IMG/VR virus record: IMGVR_UViG_3300049982_000266
Length of the DNA: 64,000 bases
Strand: one strand, 5' to 3'
From: an uncultured virus (IMG/VR IMGVR_UViG_3300049982_000266)
Taxonomy: Duplodnaviria; Heunggongvirae; Uroviricota; Caudoviricetes
Of the stretch, positions 1,571 to 22,399 are shown one piece after another; within the stretch, counting starts at the first letter, position 1, and each line of letters opens with the position of its first letter. The translations under genes were made by a program, and so were the position numbers. A model generated the notes under the pieces. That model ran no database searches and had not been told where the DNA came from. It was given only the letters and a program-made list of their open reading frames with translations.

Positions 1571-2400
1571 AGCAGGAACGCCTCGTACCCGCGCACGTTG
1601 AGCGCCGTCGCTGCCGCCACGTTCTCACCGTAGAAGCGGACCTTCGGGGTCTGGCCGGGGCGCGCCGGTGCGACCGCGCAGTAGCGGCGGCCGGTGTGGT
1701 TGAGTCGCGACAGGATCGGCGCGAAGCCGCCCTCGCCGGTGACGGCCCACGTGCCGCTGTTGACCACGAGCGTCTGCCCGGCCGGGATGCTGCCGACGTA
1801 GGAGAAGGACTCGCCCTCGACTCCGTCGGTCATGTCGACGACGCGCGGGTTGCTCACCGGGCCGGTGATGCGGAAGGTCAGGTTCTCCATCGCGGCGGTG
1901 CTGCGGGCGAACGCCGACAGGGTCAGGTCGACGTTGTGCGTCGAGGCGGAAGCGCCCATCGCGACGGTCTGCGACTGCTCCGTCGCCCCGGCCCAGTAGC
2001 CGGACGGGACGTTGACCTCGACGCCGCACCGCATCCCCAACTGGCCGATCGGCGTCGGGTCCAGGGCGGCGACGACGTCGCCCTGGCACTGGCGCATCGT
2101 GCCGTCGGCGAGGTAGCGCTTGTAGACGCTGAGCCGGTGGGGGTGGACGAGCGCGCGCAGGATCTCGTCCCATGCCGCCTCGACGGCCGCGCGGCTGATC
2201 GACGAGCCGAACCACAGCGCGAGTACGAACGAGCCCGGCCCGTGCACCTTCGGTCGCCACAGTCGACCGGTGCGGTTGGCGACGTTCGCGTCCTCGCCCT
2301 CGGCCGCCGGGGTCCGGTAGAGCCCGCGCCGGTACTCGACGTCACGGTCGTAGCCCTGCGTCAGTTCCCAGTCGTCGACCAACCAGCGCTCGCGGCTCAC
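1567..2400 (-). CDS. Distal tail (Dit-like) minor tail protein
   Basis: C-terminal part of track ORF 1567..3951. The real start is GTG 2400 (GTGA overlap with the TMP stop). It contains the typical 'ITGPVSNPRV...IPAGQTLVVNS' segment and lies directly after TMP. Confidence 0.8.
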   Translation of the reverse strand: MSRERWLVDDWELTQGYDRDVEYRRGLYRTPAAEGEDANVANRTGRLWRPKVHGPGSFVLALWFGSSISRAAVEAAWDEILRALVHPHRLSVYKRYLADGTMRQCQGDVVAALDPTPIGQLGMRCGVEVNVPSGYWAGATEQSQTVAMGASASTHNVDLTLSAFARSTAAMENLTFRITGPVSNPRVVDMTDGVEGESFSYVGSIPAGQTLVVNSGTWAVTGEGGFAPILSRLNHTGRRYCAVAPARPGQTPKVRFYGENVAAATALNVRGYEAFLL

Positions 2401-5400
2401 GCCGGTGCCCCCTCGAAGAGCCCGAGAGCGCCGAGGGTGCGCAGCGACGTGTTGAGGCTGCGCTCGGTCGGCTCGTCGGGCGGGCGGACGATGGTGAGAC
2501 GGATCGCGCCGTCCTCGAAGACCGTGCCGCCGGAGCCGCCGAGTCGGCCGTTGAGGATCGCGTCCATGAGTGCGTTCATCTTGCCCGTGTCCACGACGGT
2601 CTCGGGGACGCCGCGCTCGGCGAGCCGCACGACGGTGCCGCCCGGCGTCGGGTTGACCGTGCCGCCCTGTCCGAGAGCAGCGTGGACGTGGTCGTAGTGG
2701 TCGGCCGCCGCGAGCGGGCGCGTGATCGCGCCATTCTTGATCGAGTAGCCCATCGGCGTGTAGAAGAGTTCGCGCAGCGAGCCGCCGAACTGCGCCTTGA
2801 TGACCTCGAAGATCCGGCGCATCGCGGCGCCGTCCATCGGCCGGGGACCGGCGAGGTCGACCGCGCGGTTCGCGTAGTGGTAGGAGCCCGCCGCGTGCTT
2901 CCCGGTGTTGGTCGAGGTGATCCGGAACGGGGTGCCCGCGCTCTGGAGCGCACGCACCATCGGCCCCCACCCGGCGCCCGGCGGGATGCCGCCGGGCGGC
3001 AGGGCTCCACCCGGCGGGCGCTCGCGGTCGCGGCGCAGCGCCCAGTCGATCGCGGCCTGGATCGCCCGGTGACCACCGGCGGACGCGAGGCGGCCCATGT
3101 CGCCGTGGTTGCTGGCGACGCCGCCGAGCAGCATGCGCGGGCCGCCCATCGCGAAGTCCATGAGGAACTTCGCCGACTCCTGGACGAAGTCGACGACACG
3201 ACCGCCCACGCCCTTCAGGGCATCCCAGCCCGAGCCCGCCGCGCTCTGGATCTTGTCGACGATCCCGCCGAAGGCGAAGTGCTGCATCCCGCCCTTGACG
3301 ACGCCGCCCTTCGCGAACGCCTGGCCGGGCTGCAAGCCGGTCTTCGGCAGGGCGATGCCCGGACGGCGGACGCGGCTGCTGTAGGCGCTGTTGAGCCACT
3401 GAATCGCCTGGTCGGCGCGGACGCCCAGCGACGCCGCGATGCCGCGCGTCGCCTCGGGCACGAGGATGCCCTCGCCCGGCGACGCCGCGACGATCTGCGT
3501 GTCCTTCCCCGGCTTGTAGCCGCCGGGGACGATGCCGCCCTTCGCGAAGTTGGCCGCGATCGGTCCGATCTGCGGGCCGCCGATGCGGCTCGTGACGGCG
3601 TTGAAGCCCCGGATGAGCCCGTTGTTGAGCACGGTGTTGATGACGAAGCGCATGGGGTCGGCGAAGGCCGCGCGCAGCCCGCTCATCGCGTCGGAGACGC
3701 GCTGCCGAGCCTCGCCCGCGCGAGCCCCGAGGTTGTCGCGCAGTTCGGCGTAGCGCTGGCTCGCGTTGTCCCGCGCCTCGCGGGCTCGATCGGTGGCGGC
3801 CGTCTTCGCCTCGTTGAACCGGCCGCTGACGTTGTCCTTCAGTTCGCGGGCTCGGTTGCTCACGTTGTCGCGCGCCTCGGTCCAGCGGGCCGAGACGTTG
3901 TCCTTCAACTCGCGAGCGCGGTTGCTCGCGTTGTCGCGGGCCTCGTTCCACCGGTTGCTCACGTTGTCGCGCAGTTCGGCGGCTCGCTGCGAGACCGTGT
4001 CGCGCGCCTCGTTGAAGCGCCCCGAGACGTTGTCGCGCAGTTCAGAGGCGCGCTGCGAGACGGTGTCGCGGGTCTCGTTCCACCGGGACGAGACGCTGTC
4101 GCGCAACTCCTGCGCCTTCGTGCTCGCGGCGTCGCGCAGTTCGCCGACCTTGTTGCCGACGGAGGTCTTGATCCCCTCCCACGTGGAGTCCGCGTCGGCG
4201 GCCATCTCCAGCCACTTCGTCTTCGCGTCCCCGGCGAAGCCCGCGATGGCCGAGCCCGCCCGGCTGAAGCGCTCGCTCCAGCGATCACCGGCGTTGCCGA
4301 TGCGGCTCGTGAAGGTGTCCCACTCCTGCGAGATCTCGGTCGAGTAGCCGCGCCAGTCCGCAGCGATGGCACCACCGGCCCACGCAAAGCGCTCGCCGAT
4401 GGTCGCGGTGACCTCGTTCGCCTTCGTGGTGATCTTGTCCCAGCCGACCTCGTTGACCGTGCCGACGACCGCGCCGACCCCTGCGCCGATCGCCGCACCG
4501 ATGCCCGTGCCGATGACCGGGACGATCGACCCGATGATGGCGCCGATGCCCGCGCCCTTGCCTGCCGTGGCGAGGATGCCTCCGGCGACCTCGCGGCCCG
4601 ACCCCTCGGCAGAGTCGCCCGCCACGAGCCCCCCGGCGACCTCGCCGCCGATGCCCGCCACCGCGCCGACTCCGGCGCCACGCAGCAGGCGCGGTGCCGC
4701 CGTGCGCGCACCGGCCCCGATACGGCCCGCAGCGCCCCGCAGGCCGCCTCCCGCAGCCGCCCCGGCCGCAGCACCCCCGGCAGCGCCGCCGCCGCCCGCA
4801 GCGCCGCCACCGAGCACGCCGAGGCTCGTCAGGATCCGCGTCAGCCCCGTCAGTCGCGACAGGGTGCGCAGGTTCGCGACCATGCTGCCGACGGCCTTCG
4901 CCGCGAGCCCGAGACCGAGACCGGCGCCAGACAGGGTGAACAGCGCGGTCAGGATCGGCCCGGCGCCGGGGATCTCGGAGATCTTGATGAGCACGTCGAG
5001 GATGAGGTTGAGCACCCCGAAGAGCCCGTCCAGCGTGCCGCCGCCGGTCGCCTCGCCCAACTTCGCGAACAACTCGCCGATCTTCAGGATGAGGTCGCCG
5101 GTCTGGCGCATGACGGGCACGGTGCCGTCGAAGAACTCCTGGAGGCGGCGCTGGCCCTCCTCGCTGCCGGTCCACTTCGCGAAGCGCTCAGCGGCGTCGG
5201 CCAGGTCGCCGAGCAGGGTGTCCCCGGTGGGCATGGCGGCCGTGCCGATGTTGCCGAGCCCTCGGACGACGTCCCCGGTGATGCCGCCGACGATCTTCAG
5301 TTTGTCGTAGGCGCGGTCCAGGAAGCCGGTGATGCCCTTGCTCGGGTCGGCGTCGGAGATCTCGCGCTGCGTGTGGATGAAGTCGCTGAGCCGGTCGATC

Positions 5401-7496
5401 ACCCCGGCGAAGTCCTCGGCCATCTCCTCCAGCACCGGCCCGGCCGAGACGCCGAGGTCGGTGATGATCTGGAGCAGGTCGTCGACCGCCGACGTGCCGT
5501 CCTTCGAGCGGTCGGCGAAGGCGCCCAACTGCCGAGTGAGCGACTGCGTCATCCGGTCGAAGTCGGCCTGGAAGGCGGGGCTACCAGCGAACTCGCCGGA
5601 CTGCTTCGCCGCCTCGCCGAGCCGCTGTGCGACGGCGTAGACGCCGCCCTCTAGGTTGTCCATGAGCGGCAGGCTGGCTTCGAGCCCGTCCTGCACGCCG
5701 GGGAGCAAGCCCTCCTGTGCCGACTCCTTCACCCGGCGCAGGGCGGGGAGCATGGTTCCGTCGAGGAAGCGGGCGAACTCCTGCCCGGCGGGAGACAACT
5801 TGTCCATCGCCTGCGACGCGGCCGTGGCCGCAGCGCCAGTCGCAGCGGTCGCCTCAGTGAGCGACCGCTGCGCGTCGCTGACACTCTGGACGGCGTCGAG
5901 CACGGACTGCTGCGCGTCGGCGTTCGCCTGCGCCGTCTCGCGGATCGTGTCGGACAGCCCGCGCTCGGCCTCGACGACGGCGCGACGCCCCTCGACGCGC
6001 TCCTCGTTGAGCGACCGCTCGGCCTCGATCACCTGCTCGTTCGCCTGGCGGATCCGGTCCTGTGCGGACAGCACCTCCTCGGCGCCGTCGACACCGGCCG
6101 CCTGCGCCTGCTTCGCCGACTCGGCGAGGTCGACGTTGCTCTCGCGGGTCTCGTCGAGCCGGAGGATCGCTTGGCGGTAGGCGAGGTCGGCCTCGCGGCG
6201 GTCCAGGTCGGTGCTCGTGACGCTGCGGTTCGCTGCGTCCAGGCGCTCGCGGGCGCGCTCCACGGCCAGGCTCGCGCCCTCCTCGGACAGCGCGGCGCCC
6301 CGGAGGGTGAACTGGAGGTCTTCCAGGCGCTCGCGCGCCGTCTCGCGGGCTCGCGAGAGGTCTTCGGTGGCACGGAGCGCGTCCTGCTGCGCGGACGTGT
6401 AGGAGCGCTCGGCGGCCTCGACGCGGCGGGACGCCGACTCGATCGTGTCGGCGACCCGGCGGCGGGCCTCCTCGACCCGGCGGGCGCCCTCCTCGGCGGT
6501 CCGGTCGGCAGCCTGCGTGGCGCGCGCGACGTTCTGCTGCGCCTGCGCGACGGCGCGGGCAGCCGACTCGCGCTGCTTCGCGATGGCGGCGGCCTGCTGG
6601 CCCCCGGCGCTCTCCACCTTGCCGAGCGCCTTGACGGCGTCACCGACGCCGCTGAAGCCCGCGATGAGGGTGCCGATGGCGAAGACGCCGCCGCCGATGA
6701 GACCGGGCAGCACGCCGAGCACGCCGACGGCCTGCGAGGCGGACGCGACGACGGCGAAGAGCCCGCCCGCGAGGTTGGTCGCGTAGCCCGCCGCGAGGGC
6801 GATGCCGCTGGCGATGACCGGGAACTTCAGTAGCGGCCCGAGGGACGCGGCGACGCCGCGCAGTCGGTCGAGCCCGGAGATGTTGACCGGCACGTCGATC
6901 GGCCGCTGCGACTGGATGAGGCGGCGCCAGCGCTCGTACTTCGCTCCGGCGGCAGCGGTGTCGGCGTCGACCTTGACGGTGCTCTCGCGATCGCGCGCCG
7001 TCGCGTCGATCTGCGCCTCGGCGGCAGCCGTGTCGGCGTTGACGCCGACGTCGACCTGGCGGCCACGGATGGCCGCGTCGACCTCGGCCTCGGCCTGCGC
7101 GGTGTCGACGTCGAGTTGCACCCGGATCCGCGCGTTGCGGACGGTGGCGAGCGCACGATCGACCTCGCGCTGCACCTGGCGCGCGTCGAGCGCGACGTCG
7201 ACCTGCATCCGGACGCGCTCGCGGGCGATGCGCCGGGCGGTCTCTCGGGCCTGCGTGATGATGCCGCGCGTGTCGATCTCGGCCTTGAAGCGCACGGTCG
7301 CGGCGCGGGAGGCAGCCGTAGCCGCCTCCCGCGCCTGCGTGATGAGACCGCGCGAGTTGATCTCGGCCTGGACGCGGGCTCGGACGGTCCGCGTCTCGGC
7401 GTCGATCTTGCGCTGAAGGTCGCGCGAGAAGCCCCGGACGTCACCCTCGACAGTGACGTGGAGCCTGCCAGCGCTAGCGCCCTCGGGGGTGGTCAC
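2397..7496 (-). CDS. Tape measure protein with C-terminal putative cell-wall peptidase domain
   Basis: 1699 aa, Ala/Gly-rich, with coiled-coil and hydrophobic segments, 11/22-aa W/F-periodic repeats and 'FAKGG/FAFGG' motifs. It ends in H..GSYH...RAVD...HYDHVH and follows the tail chaperone. Confidence 0.95.
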   Translation of the reverse strand: MTTPEGASAGRLHVTVEGDVRGFSRDLQRKIDAETRTVRARVQAEINSRGLITQAREAATAASRAATVRFKAEIDTRGIITQARETARRIARERVRMQVDVALDARQVQREVDRALATVRNARIRVQLDVDTAQAEAEVDAAIRGRQVDVGVNADTAAAEAQIDATARDRESTVKVDADTAAAGAKYERWRRLIQSQRPIDVPVNISGLDRLRGVAASLGPLLKFPVIASGIALAAGYATNLAGGLFAVVASASQAVGVLGVLPGLIGGGVFAIGTLIAGFSGVGDAVKALGKVESAGGQQAAAIAKQRESAARAVAQAQQNVARATQAADRTAEEGARRVEEARRRVADTIESASRRVEAAERSYTSAQQDALRATEDLSRARETARERLEDLQFTLRGAALSEEGASLAVERARERLDAANRSVTSTDLDRREADLAYRQAILRLDETRESNVDLAESAKQAQAAGVDGAEEVLSAQDRIRQANEQVIEAERSLNEERVEGRRAVVEAERGLSDTIRETAQANADAQQSVLDAVQSVSDAQRSLTEATAATGAAATAASQAMDKLSPAGQEFARFLDGTMLPALRRVKESAQEGLLPGVQDGLEASLPLMDNLEGGVYAVAQRLGEAAKQSGEFAGSPAFQADFDRMTQSLTRQLGAFADRSKDGTSAVDDLLQIITDLGVSAGPVLEEMAEDFAGVIDRLSDFIHTQREISDADPSKGITGFLDRAYDKLKIVGGITGDVVRGLGNIGTAAMPTGDTLLGDLADAAERFAKWTGSEEGQRRLQEFFDGTVPVMRQTGDLILKIGELFAKLGEATGGGTLDGLFGVLNLILDVLIKISEIPGAGPILTALFTLSGAGLGLGLAAKAVGSMVANLRTLSRLTGLTRILTSLGVLGGGAAGGGGAAGGAAAGAAAGGGLRGAAGRIGAGARTAAPRLLRGAGVGAVAGIGGEVAGGLVAGDSAEGSGREVAGGILATAGKGAGIGAIIGSIVPVIGTGIGAAIGAGVGAVVGTVNEVGWDKITTKANEVTATIGERFAWAGGAIAADWRGYSTEISQEWDTFTSRIGNAGDRWSERFSRAGSAIAGFAGDAKTKWLEMAADADSTWEGIKTSVGNKVGELRDAASTKAQELRDSVSSRWNETRDTVSQRASELRDNVSGRFNEARDTVSQRAAELRDNVSNRWNEARDNASNRARELKDNVSARWTEARDNVSNRARELKDNVSGRFNEAKTAATDRAREARDNASQRYAELRDNLGARAGEARQRVSDAMSGLRAAFADPMRFVINTVLNNGLIRGFNAVTSRIGGPQIGPIAANFAKGGIVPGGYKPGKDTQIVAASPGEGILVPEATRGIAASLGVRADQAIQWLNSAYSSRVRRPGIALPKTGLQPGQAFAKGGVVKGGMQHFAFGGIVDKIQSAAGSGWDALKGVGGRVVDFVQESAKFLMDFAMGGPRMLLGGVASNHGDMGRLASAGGHRAIQAAIDWALRRDRERPPGGALPPGGIPPGAGWGPMVRALQSAGTPFRITSTNTGKHAAGSYHYANRAVDLAGPRPMDGAAMRRIFEVIKAQFGGSLRELFYTPMGYSIKNGAITRPLAAADHYDHVHAALGQGGTVNPTPGGTVVRLAERGVPETVVDTGKMNALMDAILNGRLGGSGGTVFEDGAIRLTIVRPPDEPTERSLNTSLRTLGALGLFEGAPA
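3715..4140 (-). repeat. Coding tandem repeat (33/66 bp) in tape measure gene
   Basis: Encodes repeated (W/F)NEARD(T/N)VS.RA.EL(R/K)DNVS.R units. Confidence 0.85.
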
Positions 7497-7900
7497 CGGC
7501 GCGGCCTAGCGGTCGCCGCGAGGATCGCGATGCCGCGCTTGGTCGCCTCGTGCGACGGCGCCGCCTTCCGCCTCGGTCGCAGGTGCTCGGGCCGGGGCAC
7601 CTTGATCGTGTCCTTCAGCCGCTTCTCGGCTGCGGTCACGCTCATCACCTCCAGCAGTTGCGCCAGGAACTCCGTGTGGAGCCCCCACCTGTCGAGCACC
7701 CGGTCTTCCGGGGCGGTGCGGTACAGCGAGTCGGGCGGTAGTCCCTTCAGCAGAGTCAGGAAGCGGCGAAGACCTACGAAGCCAGGCTGCTCGGGCTGTC
7801 TCCAGACCCCCCGGAGGTCGACTCCGTAGTGGTGCTGGAAGTCGGCTTCGAGGTCGTCCCATCGCCCTCCGAGGACTCGGAGGGCGAGGACGCTTCCGGG
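7493..7900 (-). CDS. Tail assembly chaperone, -1 frame extension (gpT-like)
   Basis: The frame is open from CCC at 7900 to the stop at 7493: ...RWDDLEADFQHHYGVDLRGVW...FLTLLKGLPPDS... It overlaps the end of the upstream chaperone ORF in the -1 frame. Confidence 0.75.
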   Translation of the reverse strand, partial: PGSVLALRVLGGRWDDLEADFQHHYGVDLRGVWRQPEQPGFVGLRRFLTLLKGLPPDSLYRTAPEDRVLDRWGLHTEFLAQLLEVMSVTAAEKRLKDTIKVPRPEHLRPRRKAAPSHEATKRGIAILAATARPRR

Positions 7901-8638: not shown

Positions 8639-9226
8639 CTACGCGGCAGGCGCGAAGGCCGGGTCGTTGCTCATGTCGTACCACGGGTCGCCGACGTCCG
8701 AGCCGAGGATCGAGAGGCGCAGCGGGAGCGTGCTCTCGCTGGTCTTCTCGAAGGTCTGCTCGACGCCCTCGGTCTGCGAGCACTTCGGGATCATGCGACG
8801 GTAGCGCTTCGTGCCGTCGATGATCTCGATGCACGCAGCGACGTCCTCGCGGGAGCCGATGGCCGGGGGCACGAACTTGTAGTACGCGGCGCGGTCGGGC
8901 GGGCCGGTGACGGCCGGGACGAGCGTCACGGCGCCACCGCCGTAGACGGCGCGGAAGTTGTCGGCCGACCACTCCTGGAGGTCGACCTCCAGGCTGGCCG
9001 CGTCCTCGGTCTGGAAGCGCCGGGTCGGGTGGTTCGACTGGTGCGACCGGACCTCCTCGAAGGACGGGTCGGTGCTCCAGCCGAGGGAGTCGGGGGTGAA
9101 GAGCCCGACCTCCTTCCAGCCGGTCGGCATCGCGACCACGGGGCCGTCGGGCGCCACAGTGCCGACAGGGGCGAGGTACACCCTCGCCAACTGTGCGACG
9201 ACGATGCGCGAAGCGTCAGTTGCCAC
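8639..9226 (-). CDS. Major tail (tube) protein
   Basis: 195 aa with 'VYLAPVGT..P...MPTGWKEVG...' typical of actinophage tail tube proteins. GAGGAG RBS, position before the chaperones, and a downstream terminator. Confidence 0.9.
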   Translation of the reverse strand: MATDASRIVVAQLARVYLAPVGTVAPDGPVVAMPTGWKEVGLFTPDSLGWSTDPSFEEVRSHQSNHPTRRFQTEDAASLEVDLQEWSADNFRAVYGGGAVTLVPAVTGPPDRAAYYKFVPPAIGSREDVAACIEIIDGTKRYRRMIPKCSQTEGVEQTFEKTSESTLPLRLSILGSDVGDPWYDMSNDPAFAPAA

Positions 9227-10704: not shown

Positions 10705-11073
10705 TCACCTCCGGGCAGGGGTGTCCGGCATCTCCGTGCCCGTGCTGACGCGCTCGAAGCCCTCGACGCGCACGTAGTCCACGGTCGGGTCGACGCTGTG
10801 CTTCAGCAGGTTCGCGGCGGCCACCGTCCAGGAACGCTCCCGGCCGCCGATCTCGACGACGAGGTCGGCCTCGGCGACCGGCCAGCAGTCGGGGTCAAGG
10901 CGCAGCCGGACGACGCTGTGGCCGCCCTCCACGTCCTCCGGGGCATAGCCGGGCGCGTGACCCTCGGGATCCCCCCACGACGCCGTAGAGCGGTAGCCGT
11001 GCTCGTCCTCGACGCCGTCGACCCGGCGTCGGACGGCGAGCATCGTGTTCGGCAGCAGGACGCTCACAGCCAC
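10705..11073 (-). CDS. Head-to-tail stopper (putative)
   Basis: 122 aa, 'VRRR...DEHGY...W' pattern, downstream of the adaptor. Confidence 0.6.
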   Translation of the reverse strand: MAVSVLLPNTMLAVRRRVDGVEDEHGYRSTASWGDPEGHAPGYAPEDVEGGHSVVRLRLDPDCWPVAEADLVVEIGGRERSWTVAAANLLKHSVDPTVDYVRVEGFERVSTGTEMPDTPARR

Positions 11074-12005
11074 GGCCCGTCGTCGACCAGCAGTCCGGCA
11101 CGGGCCTGGCGGCTGACGTCGTTGGTCGCGCGCTGGAAGACGTTGATCTGGCGGAACGCACTCAGGCTCTCGATCACCGGCAACGTGCCGACGGCGCCCG
11201 AGCCGCCGCCCTGCGTGTTGGCCGAGCCGACCTCGTCGGAGTAGGTGATGCCCTGGCCCTCGACGTTGACCGAGCGGATGCCGCGCTTCACGCCGATCGT
11301 CGAGGCGACGGGGTGCTGGCGGGCCAGCGCAGCGGCGTGCGCGAGCACGTACCGACGGATCGGGCGGAAGGCCGGGTCACGGGCCGCGTCGATCCCGGTG
11401 AGGTAGGTGACGGTGAAGAGCCCCGTCGCCAGGGCGACGCCGTTCGCGTCGGCCGGACCGAACTCCGGCTGCGCCGAGACGATCTTCAACGGCGTCTCGG
11501 ACAGCAGCCACCCGGAGGGGTGCGCGTACAGCCCGGACTCCACACGCTGCGTCGGCACGATCGGCCGCCCGAGGTACGCCTCGACGTCGGACTGCGCGTC
11601 AAGGATCGCCTCGGCCACGACCTCGCGGACGAGGGGGGTCAGCGGCAACGGGAAGCCCGCCCGTCGGGCGACGACGTCGACCGCGAGCACGAGCCCCGGC
11701 GGGATCTCCTCCGGGGCCGTCGGGATCGGGAACTGCACGACGTCGTTCGTGTCGCGGAAGACCGGCGACTCGGCCGTCTCGCGCCAGTCGATCGCGGCGT
11801 AGTAGAGCCCGTCCGGCGGGGCGTCGAAGGTGAAGCGGTAACGGCCGGGCTCGACGACGGCCGCTGGTCCGACGTTGACGACGGGCGGCGTGGCTCGGGC
11901 GGCGTCAGTGAACAGCAGCAGGCGCTCGACGGCGCCGCCAGCCGGAGCAGGGTCGTACGGCTCGCCGTCGAGCGACGGCGCGTAGTCGAGCGTCACCTGT
12001 GCCAT
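11064..12005 (-). CDS. Head-to-tail adaptor with N-terminal Ig-like extension
   Basis: ATG 12005 after GGGGAG. Contains 'AILDAQSDVEAYLGRPI...VTY..G...IRRYVL..AA...SVNVEGQGITY', an adaptor-like pattern. Confidence 0.7.
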   Translation of the reverse strand: MAQVTLDYAPSLDGEPYDPAPAGGAVERLLLFTDAARATPPVVNVGPAAVVEPGRYRFTFDAPPDGLYYAAIDWRETAESPVFRDTNDVVQFPIPTAPEEIPPGLVLAVDVVARRAGFPLPLTPLVREVVAEAILDAQSDVEAYLGRPIVPTQRVESGLYAHPSGWLLSETPLKIVSAQPEFGPADANGVALATGLFTVTYLTGIDAARDPAFRPIRRYVLAHAAALARQHPVASTIGVKRGIRSVNVEGQGITYSDEVGSANTQGGGSGAVGTLPVIESLSAFRQINVFQRATNDVSRQARAGLLVDDGPWL

Positions 12006-12019
12006 GAGTCCAGTCTCCC

Positions 12020-12298
12020 CTACGCCTTCGCGTACGACGGGATGGTGCAGTCGCCAGCGCTGATCGTCATGCCCAGCCCGAGGTCGCGGTTGAGCCGGGG
12101 GACCTGCGCGCGAGCGGCGTCGCGGATGCGCGTCGCGAACTGCTGCACACTCTCTGAGGGGTCGATCACCATGCGCTGCTCGAAGACGTCCATGCCGCCG
12201 GGCAGCAGCGCGTCGATCGTGAGGAACTGGAAGAGGATGCCGGGCCGCCCGTCCTCGGTCGGCTCGGCGCGCAGGTCGATCGCGATGACGCGGGCCAT
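12020..12298 (-). CDS. Hypothetical protein (possible fibre chaperone)
   Basis: 92 aa, GAGGAG RBS, directly after the collagen tip gene. Confidence 0.55.
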   Translation of the reverse strand: MARVIAIDLRAEPTEDGRPGILFQFLTIDALLPGGMDVFEQRMVIDPSESVQQFATRIRDAARAQVPRLNRDLGLGMTISAGDCTIPSYAKA

Positions 12299-12307
12299 GA
12301 TGCTCCT

Positions 12308-13954
12308 CTAGGCGATGCGCGTGAAGCGCATGTAGGTGCCCTGGTTGATGGTGACGGTGCCGCTGCTGGCGGCGGCGCGGAAGGACGAGACTCCCTGCGA
12401 AGGGGTGACGAACGAGCCGGTGACCTGGAAGGGCAGCGCCGTGCCGCCGCCCGACGCGGTCGCGGCACCGACGGCGGTGCCGTTGGCGATGCCGACGGCC
12501 GAGGACGTCGCCGCCGCCGAGGTGGCCGCCATGAGCGCGATGATGAACTGCGACGGCGTGCCCGGCACGAGGAGGGCGACGCGCAGCGCCGCCGTCGTGG
12601 CGGATCCCTGGTAGAAGCCGTTGATCTCGAAGGCGTAGGTGCCAGCCGCCATCGTGTCCGAGGAGATGACGGTCGTGAGCGCAGTGCCGATGGACAAACC
12701 CGTGCCGCTGTAGCGGTAGGCGCGAGTCGCGTCGATCGGGACGGGGGCGTCCAGGTAGCCCTTCGTGAACATGCGCGCGCCGTAGGTCATGATCTCGGCT
12801 TCGCCGCTGGCGATAGCCGCGCCCGCAGGGGTCGTCGGGCTGTTGGAGATCTTCAGGCGGCCCTGCGGCACCGTGTAGTTGACGTTCGAGGCGGCCAGTG
12901 TGCCGACCCACGTGATCGCCTGCCCGGCGAGGCCGGACACGCTGCTCTGATACTGCGCCTGGTACGAGTCGCCCAACTGGATCATCTGAGCGGTGCCGTT
13001 GGCCCTGAAGCGCCACGCGGTGCCGTCGAAGGTGCAGTTGTGCATGACGTACGAGGCGAGCGTGTCGCCCCACACCGTCATGCGGTCGCCGATCTCGGTG
13101 CCGAAGTTGCCCTTGATCCGCAACTCCGTGGAGTTGCCGCCGTCGCTCCGGAAGAGCGCGATGTCCGACGTCGTGTTGCCGGAGTTCAGGTCAGCCACGA
13201 GCGGGACCATCGCGGCGAGCGGCTGAAGCCACACCGCCTGCGTGATGCCCGCCGTCGGCGCACCGTTCGCGCCGGGGCTGACGTGCAGGCCGCCGGTGAA
13301 GCCGACGTTGCCCGTCCGGTCGACCCGGAAGCGGACCTCGTTCGCCTCGTTGATGTAGAGGATCGCCTGACCCTCGGAGTACCGGATAGCGCCGGTGCCC
13401 CACGTCGAGTTCGGCGCGCGGATGAGCAAGGCGATCTGGTCGGCCTGTGCCGTCGAGGGCTCGACCGTCAGGACGCCGTGGAAGACCGGCTGCGTGCCGC
13501 CACCGCCGCCCGCCGTGGTGCCCGTACCGGCCGGGTACTCCGGCCCGTGCGTCGTGGTCGCTCCGGCATCGAGTGCGAGCGGGACGGTGCCGCCGCCCGA
13601 GGCGCCCTGAGCACCCTGCGCACCCTGAGCACCAGGCACACCCTGCGTGCCCTGCGGGCCGGGCACGGTGCTCGCGGCGCCGGTCGCACCCTGCGGCCCC
13701 TGAGGGCCAGCGACGGTGCTGGCCGCGCCCGTGGCGCCCTGCGGCCCGCTAGCGCCCTGCGGCCCCTGCGGGCCGGTGACGGACGCACCCGGTGCGCCCT
13801 GCGCTCCAGCGGCTCCCTGAGCCCCAGCAGCGCCCTGCGCACCGGTCGCGCCGATGACACCCTGCGGCCCCGCTGAGCCCTGAGCGCCTGCTGCACCCTG
13901 CGCTCCGGCCGCGCCCTGCGGGCCTCTGATGTTGCCGGAGAGTCCCCACGGCAT
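12308..13954 (-). CDS. Collagen-like fibre protein with large beta-rich C-terminal (tip) region
   Basis: N-terminus [14 protein letters not shown] followed by about 110 aa of Gly-X-Y repeats, then a beta-rich domain. Confidence 0.8.
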
Positions 13955-13957
13955 CGG

Positions 13958-14725
13958 CTACGTCAGCGTGTAGACGTCGCCGGAGGACTGGTCGAGGTAC
14001 TGGTCTCCAGCGGTCGCGCCGGTCGTGTTGCCCACCGTCGGCGCGCCGGTCCCGACAAACCAGCGGGTGCCTCGCACGCCCTGGAAACCCTGCGCGCCCT
14101 GTGCTCCCGTGGCGCCCTGCGCACCCGTAGCACCCTGTGCACCGACTGCGCCCTGAGCACCCGTGGCACCGGTCGAGCCGGTCGCGCCCTGAGCACCCTG
14201 CGCTCCGACCGCTCCCTGTGCTCCGGTCGCACCCTGAGCGCCGGTCGAGCCGGTGGCTCCCTGTGCGCCGGTCGCGCCGACGTCACCCTGAGCGCCCGTG
14301 GCACCCTGAGTGCCGACAGCGCCCTGCGTGCCGGTGGCGCCCTGAGCACCGATCGCACCCTGGAAGCCCTGCGCTCCCTGAGCACCGACGGCACCCTGAG
14401 CACCGGTGACACCCTGCGTTCCCTGCGCACCCTCGACGGCGAGCAGCGACCACCCGGCGTTGACGGCGGTGTCGCTGCCGGGGTTACCGGCGGTGCCGGT
14501 CGGCGGCGTACCGACGGCGGGCTCGGGCGACGCGAGCGCGTAGTAGGACGAGCCGCCCCACGAGACCATGTCCCGAGCGGCGTAGGTGGTGCCAGCGGCC
14601 CACGCGCCTCGCGGGTTGAGACCGGAGACACCGGTGACACCCTGTGCGCCCTGGAAGCCCTGAGCACCGACCGCACCCTGGAAGCCCTGCGGGCCACGAA
14701 TGTTGCCAGATACGGTCCACGGCAT
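13958..14725 (-). CDS. Collagen-like fibre protein with CBM5/12-like module
   Basis: ATG 14725. [14 protein letters not shown], Gly-X-Y repeats, '[24 protein letters not shown]', and C-terminal 'RWFVGTGAP...[13 protein letters not shown]'. Confidence 0.8.
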
Positions 14726-14820
14726 CGCCGTCCCACCCGCTTCCTCTGAAGACTGCCGGAACCGTCGCCCACCGGCGGGTCTAACGTCCACCCGACCCGT
14801 GATCCGGTAGAACGGATCTC

Positions 14821-16110
14821 GTGCCCTCGATCTCGGTCTTCACCGCGTCCCACAAGCCCACCTACCTCGACGACGCGTACGCGTCCCTGGCGGACCAGTC
14901 GCTCTCGGACTGGGAGTGGATCCTCGTGCTCAACGGTGGCTGCCGCTGGCGCCCGCCGGAGCCCGACGACCGGGTGCGGATCTTCGAGCGCGACGACCTG
15001 CCCGCCCGTGTCGGCGCCGTGAAGCGCGCGGCCGTCGCGAAGTGCCGGGGCGACGTGCTCGTCGAACTCGACCACGACGACGTCCTCGTGCACACCGCAC
15101 TGCGCGCTGTGCTCGACGCCTTCGACACCCACCCCGACGCCGCGCTCGTCTACTCCGACTGCGCGCAGATCGGCCCCGACGGCAAGCGCGACGACACCCG
15201 CTTCGACGAGCGTCACGGCTGGCGCTACGACGACGTCACGGTCGAGGCTGCGCCCTTCGGCACCCTGGACGTACTGCGCTGCCAGGCGCTCCAGGCGACG
15301 CCCCACAACGTCGGGCTGATTTGGTACGCCCCGAACCACGTGCGCGCCTTCGCGCGGGCGGCCTACGACGTCGCGGGCGGCTACGACGACAGCCGCTACG
15401 TGCTCGATGATCAAGACCTCATGGCGCGGCTCTACCGGGTCGGCTCGTTCGTCCACATCCCCGAGGTGCTGTACCTCCAGCGCTGGCACCCCGGCAACAC
15501 GCAGGTCGAGTCCGGGACCAACGCACAGATCCAGGTCGACACCGTCAACGGCTACGAGAGCACCATCTCCGACCTCGGGCTCGCGTGGTGCAAGCGCACC
15601 GGTCTGCTGCCGCTCGACCTCGGCGCGGCCCACAACGAGCAGCCCGGCTACCTCGGCGTCGACATGCACGAGGGTCCGGGTGTCCACCTCGTCGGCGACG
15701 TCTTCGACGTGCTGGCCGAGTGGCCGGACAACAGCGTCGGCATCGTGCGGGCCTTCGACTTCCTGGAGCACGTCGAGACGCGCGACAAGGTCCGGCTGCT
15801 CAACGAGATCCACCGGGTCCTCGCACATGGCGGGCTCTTCCTCACCATGACGCCGAGCACTGACGGGCGCGGCGCCTGGCAGGATCCGACGCACGTCTCG
15901 GGGTGGAACGAGAACTCGTGGTGGTACTTCACCGACGAGCAGTACGCCGCCTTCGTCCCGGAGATCACCGCGCGCTTCCAGGTCGGCTCGCTGCGCACGA
16001 TGTACCCGAGCGAGTTCCACCGAGCGCACCTCATCCCGTACGTGCTCGGCTTCCTCGTCGCCGACAAGGGTGTCGAGCCCCGACAGGGCGGGCTCCGGCT
16101 CGGCCGCTAG
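14821..16110 (+). CDS. Family-2 glycosyltransferase fused to SAM-dependent methyltransferase
   Basis: GT-A motifs 'ISVFTASH...[13 protein letters not shown]...ELDHDD...DDQDL'. C-terminal 'LDLGAA...GYLGVD...DFLEHV...[10 protein letters not shown]...[13 protein letters not shown]'. The only clearly coding plus-strand gene. Confidence 0.9.
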
Positions 16111-16550
16111 GACAGCGTGTAGAGGTCCCCGGTGTCGAGGTCCAGGTACTCGTCACCGGGGCGCGAGCCGATGATGGTGGTCGGGGCGCCGTGACCCTGG
16201 AAGCGTCGGGTGCCCGTGCCCTCGGCACCGGCCGGTCCCTGCGGGCCGGGCTGGCGGGCGATGTGGTCGGCCTCCTCCGGCGCGATGACGGCGGCCGTCG
16301 CGACGTCGGGCACGTCCGTGCCGGTGGTGGCCCGGAGCATGTAGTGGCCGGGCTCGGCGAAGTAGCCGGTGAGGTTGCCGTCCTCGTCGGTGCGGTACGG
16401 CGTCGGAGCGAGCGTGCGGTTGATGTCGAGGTAGAGCGCGGCCTCGGCGCCGTCGCTGCGCCGGACGATGCGCACGACGTGGTTCGGCATGACGCGGCCG
16501 AGGGTGTTGACCACGGTGACCGGCATGAGCGGCCCGGCGAAGACGGTCAC
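16107..16550 (-). CDS. Putative fibre anchor protein
   Basis: N-terminal beta-sandwich-like 'TDEDGNL...AEPGHY', a short GPQGPAG, and C-terminal 'RRFQGHGAP...GDEYLDLDTGDLY'. Confidence 0.65.
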   Translation of the reverse strand: MTVFAGPLMPVTVVNTLGRVMPNHVVRIVRRSDGAEAALYLDINRTLAPTPYRTDEDGNLTGYFAEPGHYMLRATTGTDVPDVATAAVIAPEEADHIARQPGPQGPAGAEGTGTRRFQGHGAPTTIIGSRPGDEYLDLDTGDLYTLS

Positions 16551-18659: not shown

Positions 18660-20024
18660 CTAGGCCGGGGCGTCCACGAACCGTCCGTACACGAACGCCT
18701 CGGGACGCGAGACCTCCAGGGCGATCCGCTCCTCCGCGCGCAGCGTCACGACGTTGCGCTCGTAGTTGTCGCGGTTCTCGGTCGAGACCGTGACGGCGAC
18801 CTGCTCGCGGTCGTAGATCTTGGCTCCGGTGCCGAAGCCGCCCAGCAGGAAGCGGCCCTCGACGATCGCCGGGCTGTCGACCACGGCCATGCGCCAGACG
18901 CGCTTCTCGCCGCCGACCGCGACGGACGTGGCGATGGTGTACGCCCCGTTGTCGTCGGTCTCCAACTCGACGTCCTCCCAGTCGAACGGGTGCATGACGA
19001 CACCCGTCGGCTGGAAGTAGGCGAGCATGGCGCGCGTCGCAGCGCGGCGGATGGCGGCCGACTTCTTGTCGCCCGGACGGTCCGCCTGGTTGTAGGTCTG
19101 GACGCCCGGCGTGTTGACGATGCCGGTCATGTCCTCGCCGACGCCCGTGCCGTACAGGATCTCGAAGTCCTCGACCATCTTGATGCCGTCGACCATGTCG
19201 CGGTCGAGCAGGCCGCGCAGGCGCGGCTCGTCGTCCAGGACGTTCCTGTGGACGTCGAGCAGGTGGGCGATCGTGGAGATCGGGTACGTGACAGTGGTCA
19301 GCGTGAGGTCGCTCTTCGGCTTCAGACCGAAGACCTCGCGCCGCTGCACCGCCGGGGCGCCGTTGACGATCGCGAGCGTGTCCTCCTGCTCGCGCTGCGG
19401 GACGACCCGAGCCCGGTTGATGAAGCCGGTCTGGCGCACGCCGTAGAGCACGGCGGCGTTCGTCCGGTCCTGCGGGAAGAGGTCGCGGACCCGGCCCTGA
19501 CGGAGTTCGCGCTGGACGAGGTCGACCTGCTGCGCGCGGCCGAGACCGGGGATCCCGGCGACGAGACCGGCGGTCAGGCCGTGGACGGCCTTGACGCTGA
19601 GGTCGGCCAGGTCGTAGCCCTCGACCTGGAAGGTCTCGCCGAGACGCTTGAAGCCGCTGGCGCGCATCGCCTTGTAGGCGTCGCTCTCGACGTAGCGCTG
19701 GCCGAGGCTCTTCGCCTCGGTGGCGCCCGCGAAGGCGGCACGAGCGGTGTCGGCGGCGTCGCCACCGGCGATCGGCGTGCCGTCCGGCGCGTCGAGGTAC
19801 TGCTGGATGCCGAGCACCTTCTCCTCGGCGGCGATGAGCGAGCGGATCTCGTCCGCCTCGGCCACGGCCTTCAGGTAGGACTTGTGCTCGTCGGTGGAGA
19901 GGACGAACTGGCCGCCCTCCTCGGTCTTCCACGCGCCGCTGAGCCCCTGGATCTCCTGCGCCTTCGTGGCGAGGTGACCCTTCAGTTCGCGGACGCGGGA
20001 CTGGTCGATCTTCGTGTCAGGCAC
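18660..20024 (-). CDS. Major capsid protein, HK97 fold with N-terminal delta/scaffold domain
   Basis: GTG 20024 after GAGAGGG. Coiled-coil N-terminus, 'EAK/SLGQRYVES', 'KPKSDL...TIAH...LDD', 'ILYGTG', 'VMHPFDW' and 'RNVVTLRAEERIAL.V.RPEAFV.G'. Confidence 0.95.
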   Translation of the reverse strand: MPDTKIDQSRVRELKGHLATKAQEIQGLSGAWKTEEGGQFVLSTDEHKSYLKAVAEADEIRSLIAAEEKVLGIQQYLDAPDGTPIAGGDAADTARAAFAGATEAKSLGQRYVESDAYKAMRASGFKRLGETFQVEGYDLADLSVKAVHGLTAGLVAGIPGLGRAQQVDLVQRELRQGRVRDLFPQDRTNAAVLYGVRQTGFINRARVVPQREQEDTLAIVNGAPAVQRREVFGLKPKSDLTLTTVTYPISTIAHLLDVHRNVLDDEPRLRGLLDRDMVDGIKMVEDFEILYGTGVGEDMTGIVNTPGVQTYNQADRPGDKKSAAIRRAATRAMLAYFQPTGVVMHPFDWEDVELETDDNGAYTIATSVAVGGEKRVWRMAVVDSPAIVEGRFLLGGFGTGAKIYDREQVAVTVSTENRDNYERNVVTLRAEERIALEVSRPEAFVYGRFVDAPA

Positions 20025-20187
20025 GGTGGTCCCTCTCGGTACGTGGGCGGCTGTCGCCTGCCCTGCTGACGTGCGGGGGGTGCGTCCCGCCCGGCCAGCG
20101 CCGGGACCGTTCGCTGCTTCACAGCCTCCTGCGCGCTGCGTCCTAACGTCCACTCGACCTCAGGCTGAGGCTGAGGGTTGGCGCGAC

Positions 20188-20235: not shown

Positions 20236-22329
20236 TCAGACGTCGCCGAGCACGACCTCGGCGATGATCGCGTTGCCGCGCGCCAGCAGCGCCGGGTCGA
20301 GCAGCACCTTGCCCTCCATCGCGTCGGGCTCGGCCGTCTTCGCCTCGGGGGCGGCACCGCCGGTGGCAGCAGGGGCCGCAGACGGCGCCGTGCTGTCCGG
20401 AGTGACGCTGGCCGTCGGCAGCGGCTTGTCGGTGTCCACGGCAATGCCAGCGGCCCGCAGGACGGCGAAGAGGTGTTCGGCCGCCGCGCGCAGCCGGGCC
20501 TCGTTCGCGCCGGACAGGACGCGGCCCGCCTTCGTCTCGATCTCGCCGGTGGACAGCCGGGTCTTCACCTGCTGCGCGACGTCGACCACGAGGTCGGGCA
20601 GCGTGTCGAAGGCGTCGACCGGGATCGGCTCGCCGAGGCTCTTGCCCTCGACGACGGTGACCGTCGACAGGTGCACGGGCTCGGGCTCGCCGAGCACGGC
20701 GTCGGCCTCGATCGACTCGGTGTCCAGGGTGTACGGGACGTCGAAGGACTCGACCTCCGTCGGCCCCGGCCCCCACTTGTAGCGGCTGACGATCGCGTGG
20801 TCGTCGAAGGTGGCGACGAGGTCGACGTCGCTCCACTCGTAGCGCGAGTAGCCGTCGCTGTGCGTCTCGACGAGGTCGCCGCGCAGCGCCTTCGCGGCAG
20901 CGGCGCGCACGGCCCGCTGACGCTGCTCGTAGGAGCCCGGCAGCGAGGCGCCGCCGTACATCTTGACCTCGCCGGTGTCGGCGACCGGGACGTCCTTCGT
21001 CTCGACGGCCGGGGTGCTCTTCGCCTCGATCGTCGGGTCGTAGCCGTTGAGCAGGTCGTCGACCGTGATGGGCTCGACGATGAGGGTCTTCTCGCCCGCG
21101 TGGCCCTTGCCGGGAGGGGCGCCGACGGCGTCCTGGTGGCGCAGGTTGCAGTAGCCCTTCGCGCGGGTGCCCATGTGCTTCGAGAGCAGCCGGACGCAGC
21201 GGTCGAAGTCGCCGTCGGTGCCCCACTTGATCTTCGCCGCGCCCTCGCCGGACGTCCAGTAGCGGCGCAACTTCTCGGCGCCGCCCTTGTTCGCGTCGGC
21301 GCCGCCCTCGGCCTTGAACTCCTCGGGGAGCCAGCCCTTCGGCAGCGCGTCGGTGGCGCCGAGCGCGAGCGCGCGGCCGACGATGTGCGCCTTCGCCTCG
21401 ACGCGGTCAGCGGCGCGCGGGTAGGCGCGCACGGCCGCCGTCAGGTCGCCGGTGCTGCGGATCGGGAACGAGCCGTCCGGCAGCGCCGCGTCGCTCTTCG
21501 CCTCGATCGTGCCCATGCCGCCGAGCCCGAGCAGGGTGCGCCGGTGCAGCAGCGCCTTGATCTCGGGGTCGGTGCTGTGCGCCTCGGCGGCGAGTGCCGC
21601 CTGGTCGATCTCGTCCCAGTCGATCTCGCCTTCGGCGGCGGCGTAGAGCGCCGACTCCTCCTCGGTGGGCTCGTCCGGGTCGACGACCTTGACCGGCACG
21701 ACGGTGTCGCCGACGGCGAGGCTCTTGACGCTGAGCGTCATGCTCTCGCTCGCGGCCCCGAAGAGCACCGGGCCGTACTCGAAGAGGTCGAGGCTCTTGA
21801 TGTTGCGGACGCCGTCGCGGCCCTTCGTTGCCTGACCGGGCGGCACGACGTAGCCGATCGACCACTCGCACTCGTCGGTCTCGCTGAAGAACTCGACCGC
21901 CTGGAACGCCTCGCGCGAGCGGGCGCTCTTCATGTTGAAGCGGGTGGTGACGACCAGCGCACCGGCCTCGGCGGGCCACGGCTTGCCGTCCTTCGTCTGC
22001 TTCGGCAGGCGCTCGTCGCCGGGCGGGTACTCCTCGATCTCCTCGGTGCGGGAGACCCAGTCCTTCCAGTCGTGGGACCACACGCCCTTCGGCTTGCGGA
22101 TCTTCAGCGTCTTCGTGTACGCGCCCGGCAGGATCCGGTCGTCCACGTTGTCGACGATGCCGGTGACGCTGACGATCGCGCGCACGAGCCCGTTCGCCTC
22201 GTCGACCTCCAGCAGACCCGAGTGGGGAGCGGCCAGGGCGGGCGTCGCGGACGCGGCCTTGTGCTCCATGCCGGGGATGACGAGAGCCGGGCCGGACCCG
22301 CCCTTGCGCTCCAGCGTCGCAGTGCTCAC
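20236..22329 (-). CDS. HK97-type prohead protease (S78) with long multidomain C-terminal extension
   Basis: 'DNVDDRILPGAY...WSHDW...EWSIGY...LFEYGPVLFGA' core, then 'LPDGSFPI...RALALG..LP.GW', 'LRRYW..GEGAAKI.WG..GDFDRCV' and 'KAGRVLSGANEARL'. Confidence 0.9.
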   Translation of the reverse strand: MSTATLERKGGSGPALVIPGMEHKAASATPALAAPHSGLLEVDEANGLVRAIVSVTGIVDNVDDRILPGAYTKTLKIRKPKGVWSHDWKDWVSRTEEIEEYPPGDERLPKQTKDGKPWPAEAGALVVTTRFNMKSARSREAFQAVEFFSETDECEWSIGYVVPPGQATKGRDGVRNIKSLDLFEYGPVLFGAASESMTLSVKSLAVGDTVVPVKVVDPDEPTEEESALYAAAEGEIDWDEIDQAALAAEAHSTDPEIKALLHRRTLLGLGGMGTIEAKSDAALPDGSFPIRSTGDLTAAVRAYPRAADRVEAKAHIVGRALALGATDALPKGWLPEEFKAEGGADANKGGAEKLRRYWTSGEGAAKIKWGTDGDFDRCVRLLSKHMGTRAKGYCNLRHQDAVGAPPGKGHAGEKTLIVEPITVDDLLNGYDPTIEAKSTPAVETKDVPVADTGEVKMYGGASLPGSYEQRQRAVRAAAAKALRGDLVETHSDGYSRYEWSDVDLVATFDDHAIVSRYKWGPGPTEVESFDVPYTLDTESIEADAVLGEPEPVHLSTVTVVEGKSLGEPIPVDAFDTLPDLVVDVAQQVKTRLSTGEIETKAGRVLSGANEARLRAAAEHLFAVLRAAGIAVDTDKPLPTASVTPDSTAPSAAPAATGGAAPEAKTAEPDAMEGKVLLDPALLARGNAIIAEVVLGDV

Positions 22330-22399
22330 GTGATGCCCTCCTCGGCAGTCGCTTCTCCGGCGGAGGCTACGGCGGCGAGGGGGCTACGGTCGCGCGCAC

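Follow-up and report, generated by a model that had tools for sequence, protein, structure and literature searches.

A 64,000-nucleotide stretch of DNA from an uncultured virus of the Caudoviricetes (Duplodnaviria; Heunggongvirae; Uroviricota; IMG/VR record IMGVR_UViG_3300049982_000266), here called the window, was found to contain three minus-strand genes whose products carry matching parts of one small domain, the node, at their ends. These genes are designated A (anchor), B (extender) and C (tip). Their products would be the three parts of a single collagen-like accessory fibre in a phage of actinobacteria and are probably joined end to end via the split node. A non-covalent plug-and-socket joint between the trimeric collagen-like proteins A, B and C is the best reading of these sequences, and it is one that we favour with modest confidence. 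As judged from sequence comparison, the three-part architecture is well supported and the trans-strand joint is plausible. All three open reading frames (ORFs) lie on the minus strand and have the termini that were quoted for them in a preliminary description of this DNA.

Gene A (16107-16550, GTG start at 16550, TAG stop) encodes 147 amino acids (aa) and is composed of a beta-rich N-terminal domain of about 100 aa, four Gly-X-Y triplets and, at its C-terminus, the first portion of the node, termed the C-half (16110-16220, aa 111-147, with a proline before the GD motif). Gene B (13958-14725, ATG at 14725, TAG stop) encodes 255 aa and has an element at each end. It opens with the remaining portion of the node, termed the N-half (14684-14725, 14 residues), which is followed by 10 triplets, an 80-aa globular insert, about 33 triplets and a second C-half (13961-14080, aa 216-255, without a proline before GD). 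Gene C (12308-13954, TAG stop) encodes 548 aa with an N-half, about 115 residues of interrupted collagen and a globular C-terminal region of 424 aa (12311-13582) that is a putative receptor-binding tip; it has no C-half. All these elements are on the minus strand. The Pfam Collagen family was matched by B (E 5.6e-22, 77.7 bits against a cut-off of 27.2) and by C (E 4.4e-7, 30.0 bits, same cut-off); A, with its four triplets, gave no Collagen match. B also matches phrog_5073, a tail fiber protein family (E 9e-45). At the junction between B and C (13952-13963, minus strand) the sequence reads ACG TAG CCG ATG and then CCG TGG, so the two genes are in the same frame with a 3-nucleotide (nt) gap, comprising TAG and one proline codon, and no obvious Shine-Dalgarno sequence.

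Where the node is found in one piece, it spans about 50 residues between two triple helices and has the pattern W..G.G.P...GD.YLD...G..Y, a loop of 6-8 residues and then W...GNI.GP.G. There is no model for it in Pfam. A forward scan of IMG/VR with a degenerate DNA pattern for GD.YLD...G..Y gave at least 130 loci with at least 153 matches, at least 136 of them distinct, and the forward-scan counts in this text refer to the 136 distinct matches listed. Full contiguous nodes were observed in 38 of these and nodes contiguous with another continuation in 22, and in 20 the chain stops within 7 residues and is followed by a gene starting M.W, while 5 stop after the W strand. The script classed 36 as not being nodes, and inspection by eye found these to be mostly contiguous nodes that the filter had missed; one locus missed in this way, L005, holds five contiguous nodes in tandem. 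The contiguous unit was the commonest form among the matches listed, which agrees with the preliminary description, where the two halves are usually one unit in phage fibres. A stricter filter gave at least 45 distinct contiguous nodes, and 30 of 45 were aligned to build a hidden Markov model (HMM) of 59 positions.

Against this node model, residues 111-145 of A were found to match positions 3-36 (27.3 bits) and residues 216-253 of B positions 2-36 (37.5 bits), and the residues 3-20 of B and of C both match positions 42-59 (12.2 and 14.1 bits respectively). With hhalign, nine C-halves aligned to node columns 2-38 (probability 98.9, E 1.7e-17) and nine N-halves to columns 42-61 (probability 96.9, E 1.9e-10); the profile-profile matches of both halves are far beyond chance. 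The C-half of B is identical to contiguous nodes at 20 of 34 to 21 of 31 residues, and reading on through the stop at the B/C junction gives Y-TLT-x-P-M-P-W, which needs no gap to align with Y-EKTGASA-W of contiguous nodes. Since the halves map to positions 2-36 and 42-59 and the read-through alignment is gapless, the cut falls in the loop. To judge from the sequence pattern, this loop would separate a strand GD.Y.L. from a strand.W...GNI. A full contiguous node was not observed within A, B or C, each of which holds part of it, and a six-frame regular-expression scan of the 64 kb found W...GN..G..G only at the N-termini of B and C and GD.Y.D...G..Y....stop only at A and B. The view that these motifs are complementary, non-overlapping halves of one domain, contiguous elsewhere, is supported by the profile comparisons. 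In the PDB, a search with the node profile gave only a weak motif match, to residues 356-386 of VP88 of Singapore grouper iridovirus (SGIV), a capsid anchor protein that is not collagen-like (8hif chain y4, E 8e-5); this is the sole solved structure with the motif.

The same split was observed in other phages. With the read-through junction peptide as query, tblastn gave 24 phage records at E <= 10, of which 7 were at E <= 0.01. Nine of the 24 have a match that runs across two annotated genes, namely EmiRose (2 records), NOC3, NBR1 (2 records), KYD2, prophiGD05-1, phiGD17-1 and prophiGD17-1; in others, such as Vash gp18 and phiBT1 gp49, it lies inside a single tail fibre gene. A chain of three genes is present in EmiRose (gp24/25/26), NBR1 (orf16/17/18), KYD2, prophiGD05-1 (gp67/68/69) and phiGD17-1 (gp24/25/26), phages with Corynebacterium, Nocardia and Mycobacterium as hosts. 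In these five phages the split is at the same loop and the genes are 3-16 nt apart. The first gene of the chain encodes a small protein with its own N-terminus and a C-half, the second starts MAW...G.[IL].GP.G and ends in a C-half, and the third starts M[AG]W and has a globular end. When five IMG/VR contigs were searched with the node profile, all five showed this chain, the start of the first protein being read in all but L138, and in one of the five a tail of 28 residues follows the first C-half. The anchor, two-ended extender and tip that had been proposed for the window are thus a gene order that recurs in distant actinophages and in these contigs: own N-terminal domain, two-ended protein and distal globular end were observed in the window, the five phages and the five contigs alike. 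Exactly one two-ended protein was found in every chain that could be read.

In the five phages, a gene starting M.W...GNI lies no more than about 16 nt beyond nine of the ten C-half ends, and the 3-nt spacing of B and C fits this rule. A and B form an exception, with a 1.3-kb gene on the opposite strand between them. All-against-all BLASTP of seven anchors showed similarity confined to the C-terminal 28-82 residues, and the same comparison of eight tips gave no match at E < 1e-3. Because the anchors are alike only at their C-terminal end and the tips are unrelated, the joint is the conserved part of these cassettes. Tips that contain no collagen, NBR1 orf18 and prophiGD05-1 gp69 among them, lack any other attachment domain yet still begin M[AG]W; some tips starting M[APG]W are only 106-125 aa long. 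BLASTP of A against Vash gp18 gave no significant similarity outside the node.

The identity of the residue before GD or ND in the C-half seems to change with the type of partner. Among 49 junctions, a set in which related phages are not independent and a few rows are spurious and to which no statistical test was applied, 19 had proline before GD/ND, and 13 of these had an extender or a long-collagen protein as partner; of the 30 without it, 24 had a tip or a short protein. A has RPGD, the signature of first junctions, and B has TAGD, that of second junctions, which fits the order A, B, C.

We also approached the joint from its other side, by a search of IMG/VR for the pattern MAW...GNI.GP at gene starts. 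This reverse test yielded a complete list of 53 loci with 51 distinct genes (MAW genes), and an upstream gene was classified if it ended between -23 and +15 nt of the ATG. According to the script, 25 of the upstream genes end in a node cut after the third strand, 14 end in a node that is complete, W strand included, and carries a short tail, 8 end in a C-half with a longer tail, and no node was found in 4. By eye, L193 belongs to the cut-node class and L167 and the second gene of L151 to the complete-node class. A total of 47 of the 51 MAW genes, or 48 with L193, were therefore observed directly behind a node-ended gene.

The complete-node junctions, which we call class 2, were noticed at the IMG/VR loci L151, L154, L158, L160, L161, L174, L178, L180, L188, L195 and L196. 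The upstream protein there ends in a complete node (for example ...FQFDGTQWRMIF...) and the next gene still starts MAWQPKGNIKGP, overlapping the upstream ORF by 14-23 nt in six cases. Such junctions might use strand exchange instead of complementation, or might involve no contact at all. A separate anchor family (L137/L156, L170, L177, L182 and L190) has a C-half and then a tail of the form ...G[MI]IPGG. or ...LIPGGS before the MAW gene, and some of these tails are Pro-rich.

From the sequences, we infer plug-socket docking, a trimeric state, the order A-B-C and a site of attachment to the virion, as follows. With the polypeptide cut in the node loop, A and B would end with the first three-quarters of the node, forming a socket, and B and C would begin with its last strand, M-P-W-x-x-x-G-N-I, forming a plug that runs straight into the triple helix of its own chain. 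A would fix the fibre to the virion through its beta-rich N-terminal domain, the B trimer would plug into A and the C trimer into B, and the distal globular region of C would probably bind the host. At a rise of about 0.29 nm per collagen residue, we estimate that such a fibre would be some 75-85 nm long. Only the gene order in this window points to a head or neck position for the fibre; in the isolates the cassette sits among tail genes. More tentatively, and with less confidence than we place in the joint itself, the split node could be a general portable connector for trimeric collagen-like fibres of actinobacterial phages. Any protein starting M-[APG]-W-xxx(-GNI) could then hang on any node-ended protein, so that anchors, spacers and tips, whether receptor-binding or enzymatic, could be swapped between phages as individual genes, with strand exchange where the upstream protein has kept its W strand.

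Several observations weigh against the plug-and-socket joint. In donor-strand complementation the acceptor is without its last strand, and the profile mapping finds this for A and B; among the 51 related upstream proteins of the reverse test, however, about 16 by eye (14 by script) keep their own W strand, so the plug would not be filling a vacant strand position there. These proteins argue against a simple missing-last-strand rule, and another 6-8 upstream proteins carry a tail after the C-half. Protein-ending C-halves with no adjoining M.W gene make up 15 of the 136 distinct forward-scan matches listed. The N-halves of B and C differ at only 2 of 14 residues, with no evident basis for junction specificity. 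Moreover, A and B are not adjacent in the window, and no close relative showing that they travel together was found in phage, genome or metagenome searches: neither A nor C had a tblastn match in the phage collection, the single relative from a genome scan based on the capsid, in Streptosporangium oxazolinicum, has no collagen genes close to it, and a metagenome scan with A returned only a spurious collagen match in DNA of 45% guanine-cytosine (GC) content. The W-strand keepers that MAW genes still follow, together with the C-halves that have no partner, speak for an account in which gene fission at a recombination-prone node has left the conserved termini as mere end caps or nuclei for folding. 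Each of the proteins, or only some of them, would then be attached to the virion independently, with no contact between plug and socket. We regard this account as less likely than the joint. It leaves short tips without any attachment domain, it does not suit the near-constant position of MAW genes directly behind a node-ended gene, and it has to accommodate a joint that is the only part conserved across unrelated anchors and tips and whose halves do not overlap in the profile.

If contact between the halves is accepted, nothing obvious forbids the C-half of B from docking with the N-half of another B, given the 2-in-14 difference between the N-halves and the nearly identical C-terminal tails of A and B (YTLS and YTLT). 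The preliminary description had proposed such head-to-tail polymerisation, with fibres of variable length. The proposal is unsupported by our data, since every readable chain has one extender and the two junctions tend to differ in the residue before GD, and gaps of 3-16 nt suggest coupled and roughly equimolar synthesis; self-binding of the extender in addition to its other contacts is consequently judged improbable. A covalent B-C fusion with an intact node, made by read-through or recoding of the in-frame TAG, would be compatible with the one-codon spacer and with a read-through loop of canonical length. In-frame junctions are also somewhat more frequent than one in three, with 7 in frame and 2 out in the isolates and the window, 14 in frame against 12 out of frame in the reverse test and, by eye, about 12 in and 9 out among the forward-scan matches listed. 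This excess may reflect an origin by point changes in a contiguous node. Many junctions are nevertheless out of frame, such as NBR1 orf17/18 (4 nt, with 3 nt in its relative KYD2) and prophiGD05-1 gp67/68 (a 16-nt gap and a ribosome-binding site), each of the three stop codons is used at split-node junctions, and A and B are 1.3 kb apart. TAG also ends 17 of 43 genes of the window, including those for the capsid and the tail tube, beyond whose stops the sequence looks non-coding (GC content at third codon positions, GC3, 0.74 and 0.63); no tRNA genes were found in the window, and the RNA of the B/C junction showed no significant structure (z -1.24). We consider the fusion very improbable. TAG recoding under code 15, which is recognised by TAG lying inside intact genes and being unused as a stop, was not what we found here and is likewise unlikely. 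Least credible of all is ordinary damage, in which a recent nonsense mutation would have split a single fibre gene into B and C: the junction can be aligned colinearly with an intact node, but a proper ATG stands one codon after the stop, the combination of stop and M.W start recurs in many unrelated phages with varied stops and spacers, and A and B show the same halves without being adjacent.

Fibres built from several gene products placed end to end, with the receptor-binding protein last, are known from the long tail fibre of phage T4 (gp34, gp35, gp36 and gp37). The T4 fibre is not collagen-like and shares no sequence with A-B-C, and to our knowledge its joints are not halves of one split domain. 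In chaperone-usher pili, the N-terminal strand of each subunit completes the fold of the one before it, which has no last beta strand of its own. Pilins are monomeric immunoglobulin-like proteins that polymerise, whereas A, B and C would be trimeric, with three strands at each joint and a fixed order; there is no homology between the two systems and many relatives of the split node keep the last strand. SPP1 gp12, a collagen-like trimer, is a capsid decoration protein encoded beside the capsid gene. The placement of a collagen-like gene beside a capsid gene is shared with A-C in the window, although gp12 is a single small protein without node halves. The term collagen-like appears in the SPP1 genome paper (PMC6316719).

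The closest single-chain counterparts are Streptomyces phage Vash gp18, phiBT1 gp49 and many IMG/VR fibres, which have the same node sequence and the same order of modules (N-terminal domain, node, collagen and distal globular region). Each of these is one polypeptide, whereas the chain in the window is cut twice, each time in a node loop, to give three genes. The collagen-like proteins EPclA-D of prophages in enterohaemorrhagic Escherichia coli (EHEC) are, in the consulted sections of Ghosh et al. 2012 (PMC3368898), trimeric phage fibre proteins in which two collagen domains alternate with three globular ones, a globular domain standing at each end, and their N-terminal PfN domain is noted there as resembling a carboxypeptidase regulatory domain. 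This likeness parallels the type of Atlas cluster pointed to for A. EPclA-D are described in those sections as single polypeptides with PfN, PCoil, Pf2 and PfC, none of which Pfam finds in A, B and C, and a split joint is not described in them (PMC3368898). Single-chain fibres with a collagen node are already known; neither a split collagen node nor its three-gene form was found described in the literature (supplements not covered).

If the joint is real, it would explain the route to the virion for many actinophage proteins annotated as minor tail or hypothetical proteins, including tips of about 100 residues without an attachment domain, and would identify the host-recognition subunit in phage cassettes of the Corynebacterium, Nocardia, Mycobacterium and Streptomyces types. 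It would be a new type of joint among the few known builds of multi-protein phage fibres and could offer protein engineers a short natural connector with which to couple trimeric collagen-like rods non-covalently, end to end. In annotation, an in-frame stop within a collagen node need not signal a broken gene or recoding.

The starts of the three genes were assigned with the help of relatives. The GTG start of A is backed by AGPL[ML]PVTVVNTL, which is conserved in P0002 and P0003, and the MPW start of C is backed by its relatives. The ATG of B is preceded by the purine-rich GGAAGCGGGTGGGA and fits the M[AP]W start of all relatives. Public gene calls seem shorter, with C given as 452 aa (P0006, starting 96 residues in) and A as 139 aa (P0001). 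Only two homologues of A were found among 55 candidates. A has no Pfam or PHROG family, and PF08400 (phage_tail_N) and PF13620 (CarboxypepD_reg) were unmatched even at E <= 1. Its look-alikes in the Atlas belong to CarboxypepD_reg-like and phage_tail_N+collagen clusters (score 0.86, template modelling (TM) score 0.62-0.71) and are leads only; a single-sequence fold prediction of A was unusable, with a predicted local distance difference test (pLDDT) value of 33.8.

The globular region of C has matches in 26 proteins at E <= 1e-3 and in 5 at E <= 1e-30, its own record included. Four clear full-length relatives (E 2.3e-78 to 9.7e-144) were observed, in each of which the region ends a longer fibre-like protein. 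One relative, P0007, starts VPWTLNGRLTG and bears a GDSL/SGNH esterase domain; the N-termini of the other relatives differ. For the tip of C, neither a PDB sequence search nor PHROG gave a match. The globular insert of B (14372-14611, minus strand, aa 39-118) resembles carbohydrate-binding module (CBM) 5/12, with a match to Pfam CBM_5_12 (E 5e-5, 23.7 bits) that is below the 26.2 cut-off and is a lead only. A sub-threshold CBM 5/12 match (19.6 bits) was also noticed in the collagen-interrupting insert of the first-chain protein of the IMG/VR locus L140. Collagen-interrupting inserts of this kind may be sugar-binding beads along the fibre.

The GC content of the window is 71-76% and nearly all clear genes are on the minus strand. 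Genes A, B and C are surrounded by a phage structural module with a prohead protease (20236-22383, Peptidase_S78), the major capsid protein (18660-20153, Phage_capsid, E 1.6e-34), a weakly matched head-tail adaptor (11064-11942), a head-morphogenesis-like protein, a tail terminator, the tail tube protein (8639-9226, Phage_TTP_17, E 1.9e-29) and an ORF of 1702 aa (2397-7505) that is taken as the tape measure from its size and position. Directly after gene C, in the same frame and behind its TAG, lies a minus-strand ORF of 92 aa (12020-12298) for which family searches gave no match; it could conceivably encode a fibre assembly factor.

The gene between A and B (14821-16110) is the sole clear plus-strand gene of the window in the GC3 gene list. 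It encodes a 429-aa fusion of a glycosyltransferase of family 2 and an S-adenosylmethionine (SAM) methyltransferase, with Pfam matches to Glycos_transf_2 (27.2 bits, cut-off 23.3) and Methyltransf_11 (27.8 bits, cut-off 21.2), and a full-length homologue that is 37% identical was found in Synechococcus phage S-CRM01. Its stop overlaps that of gene A at 16107-16110. We noticed abundant Gly-X-Thr and Gly-X-Ser triplets in the collagen regions of B and C, and it may be speculated that, given these Thr/Ser-rich triplets, the fusion protein might glycosylate the fibre.

A further pair of genes was noticed in the Mycobacterium phage Gladiator (L146, 2378-3738), where the collagen-like protein gp7 terminates in ...GKLYVVTQ and gp8, which overlaps it, begins with VTPSLRFWNGSAF. 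Taken together, the ends of gp7 and gp8 resemble another type of internal node (...YVVAEDGLLYFFDGTSF...), and cluster-A-like mycobacteriophages may have in this pair a split node of a second type.

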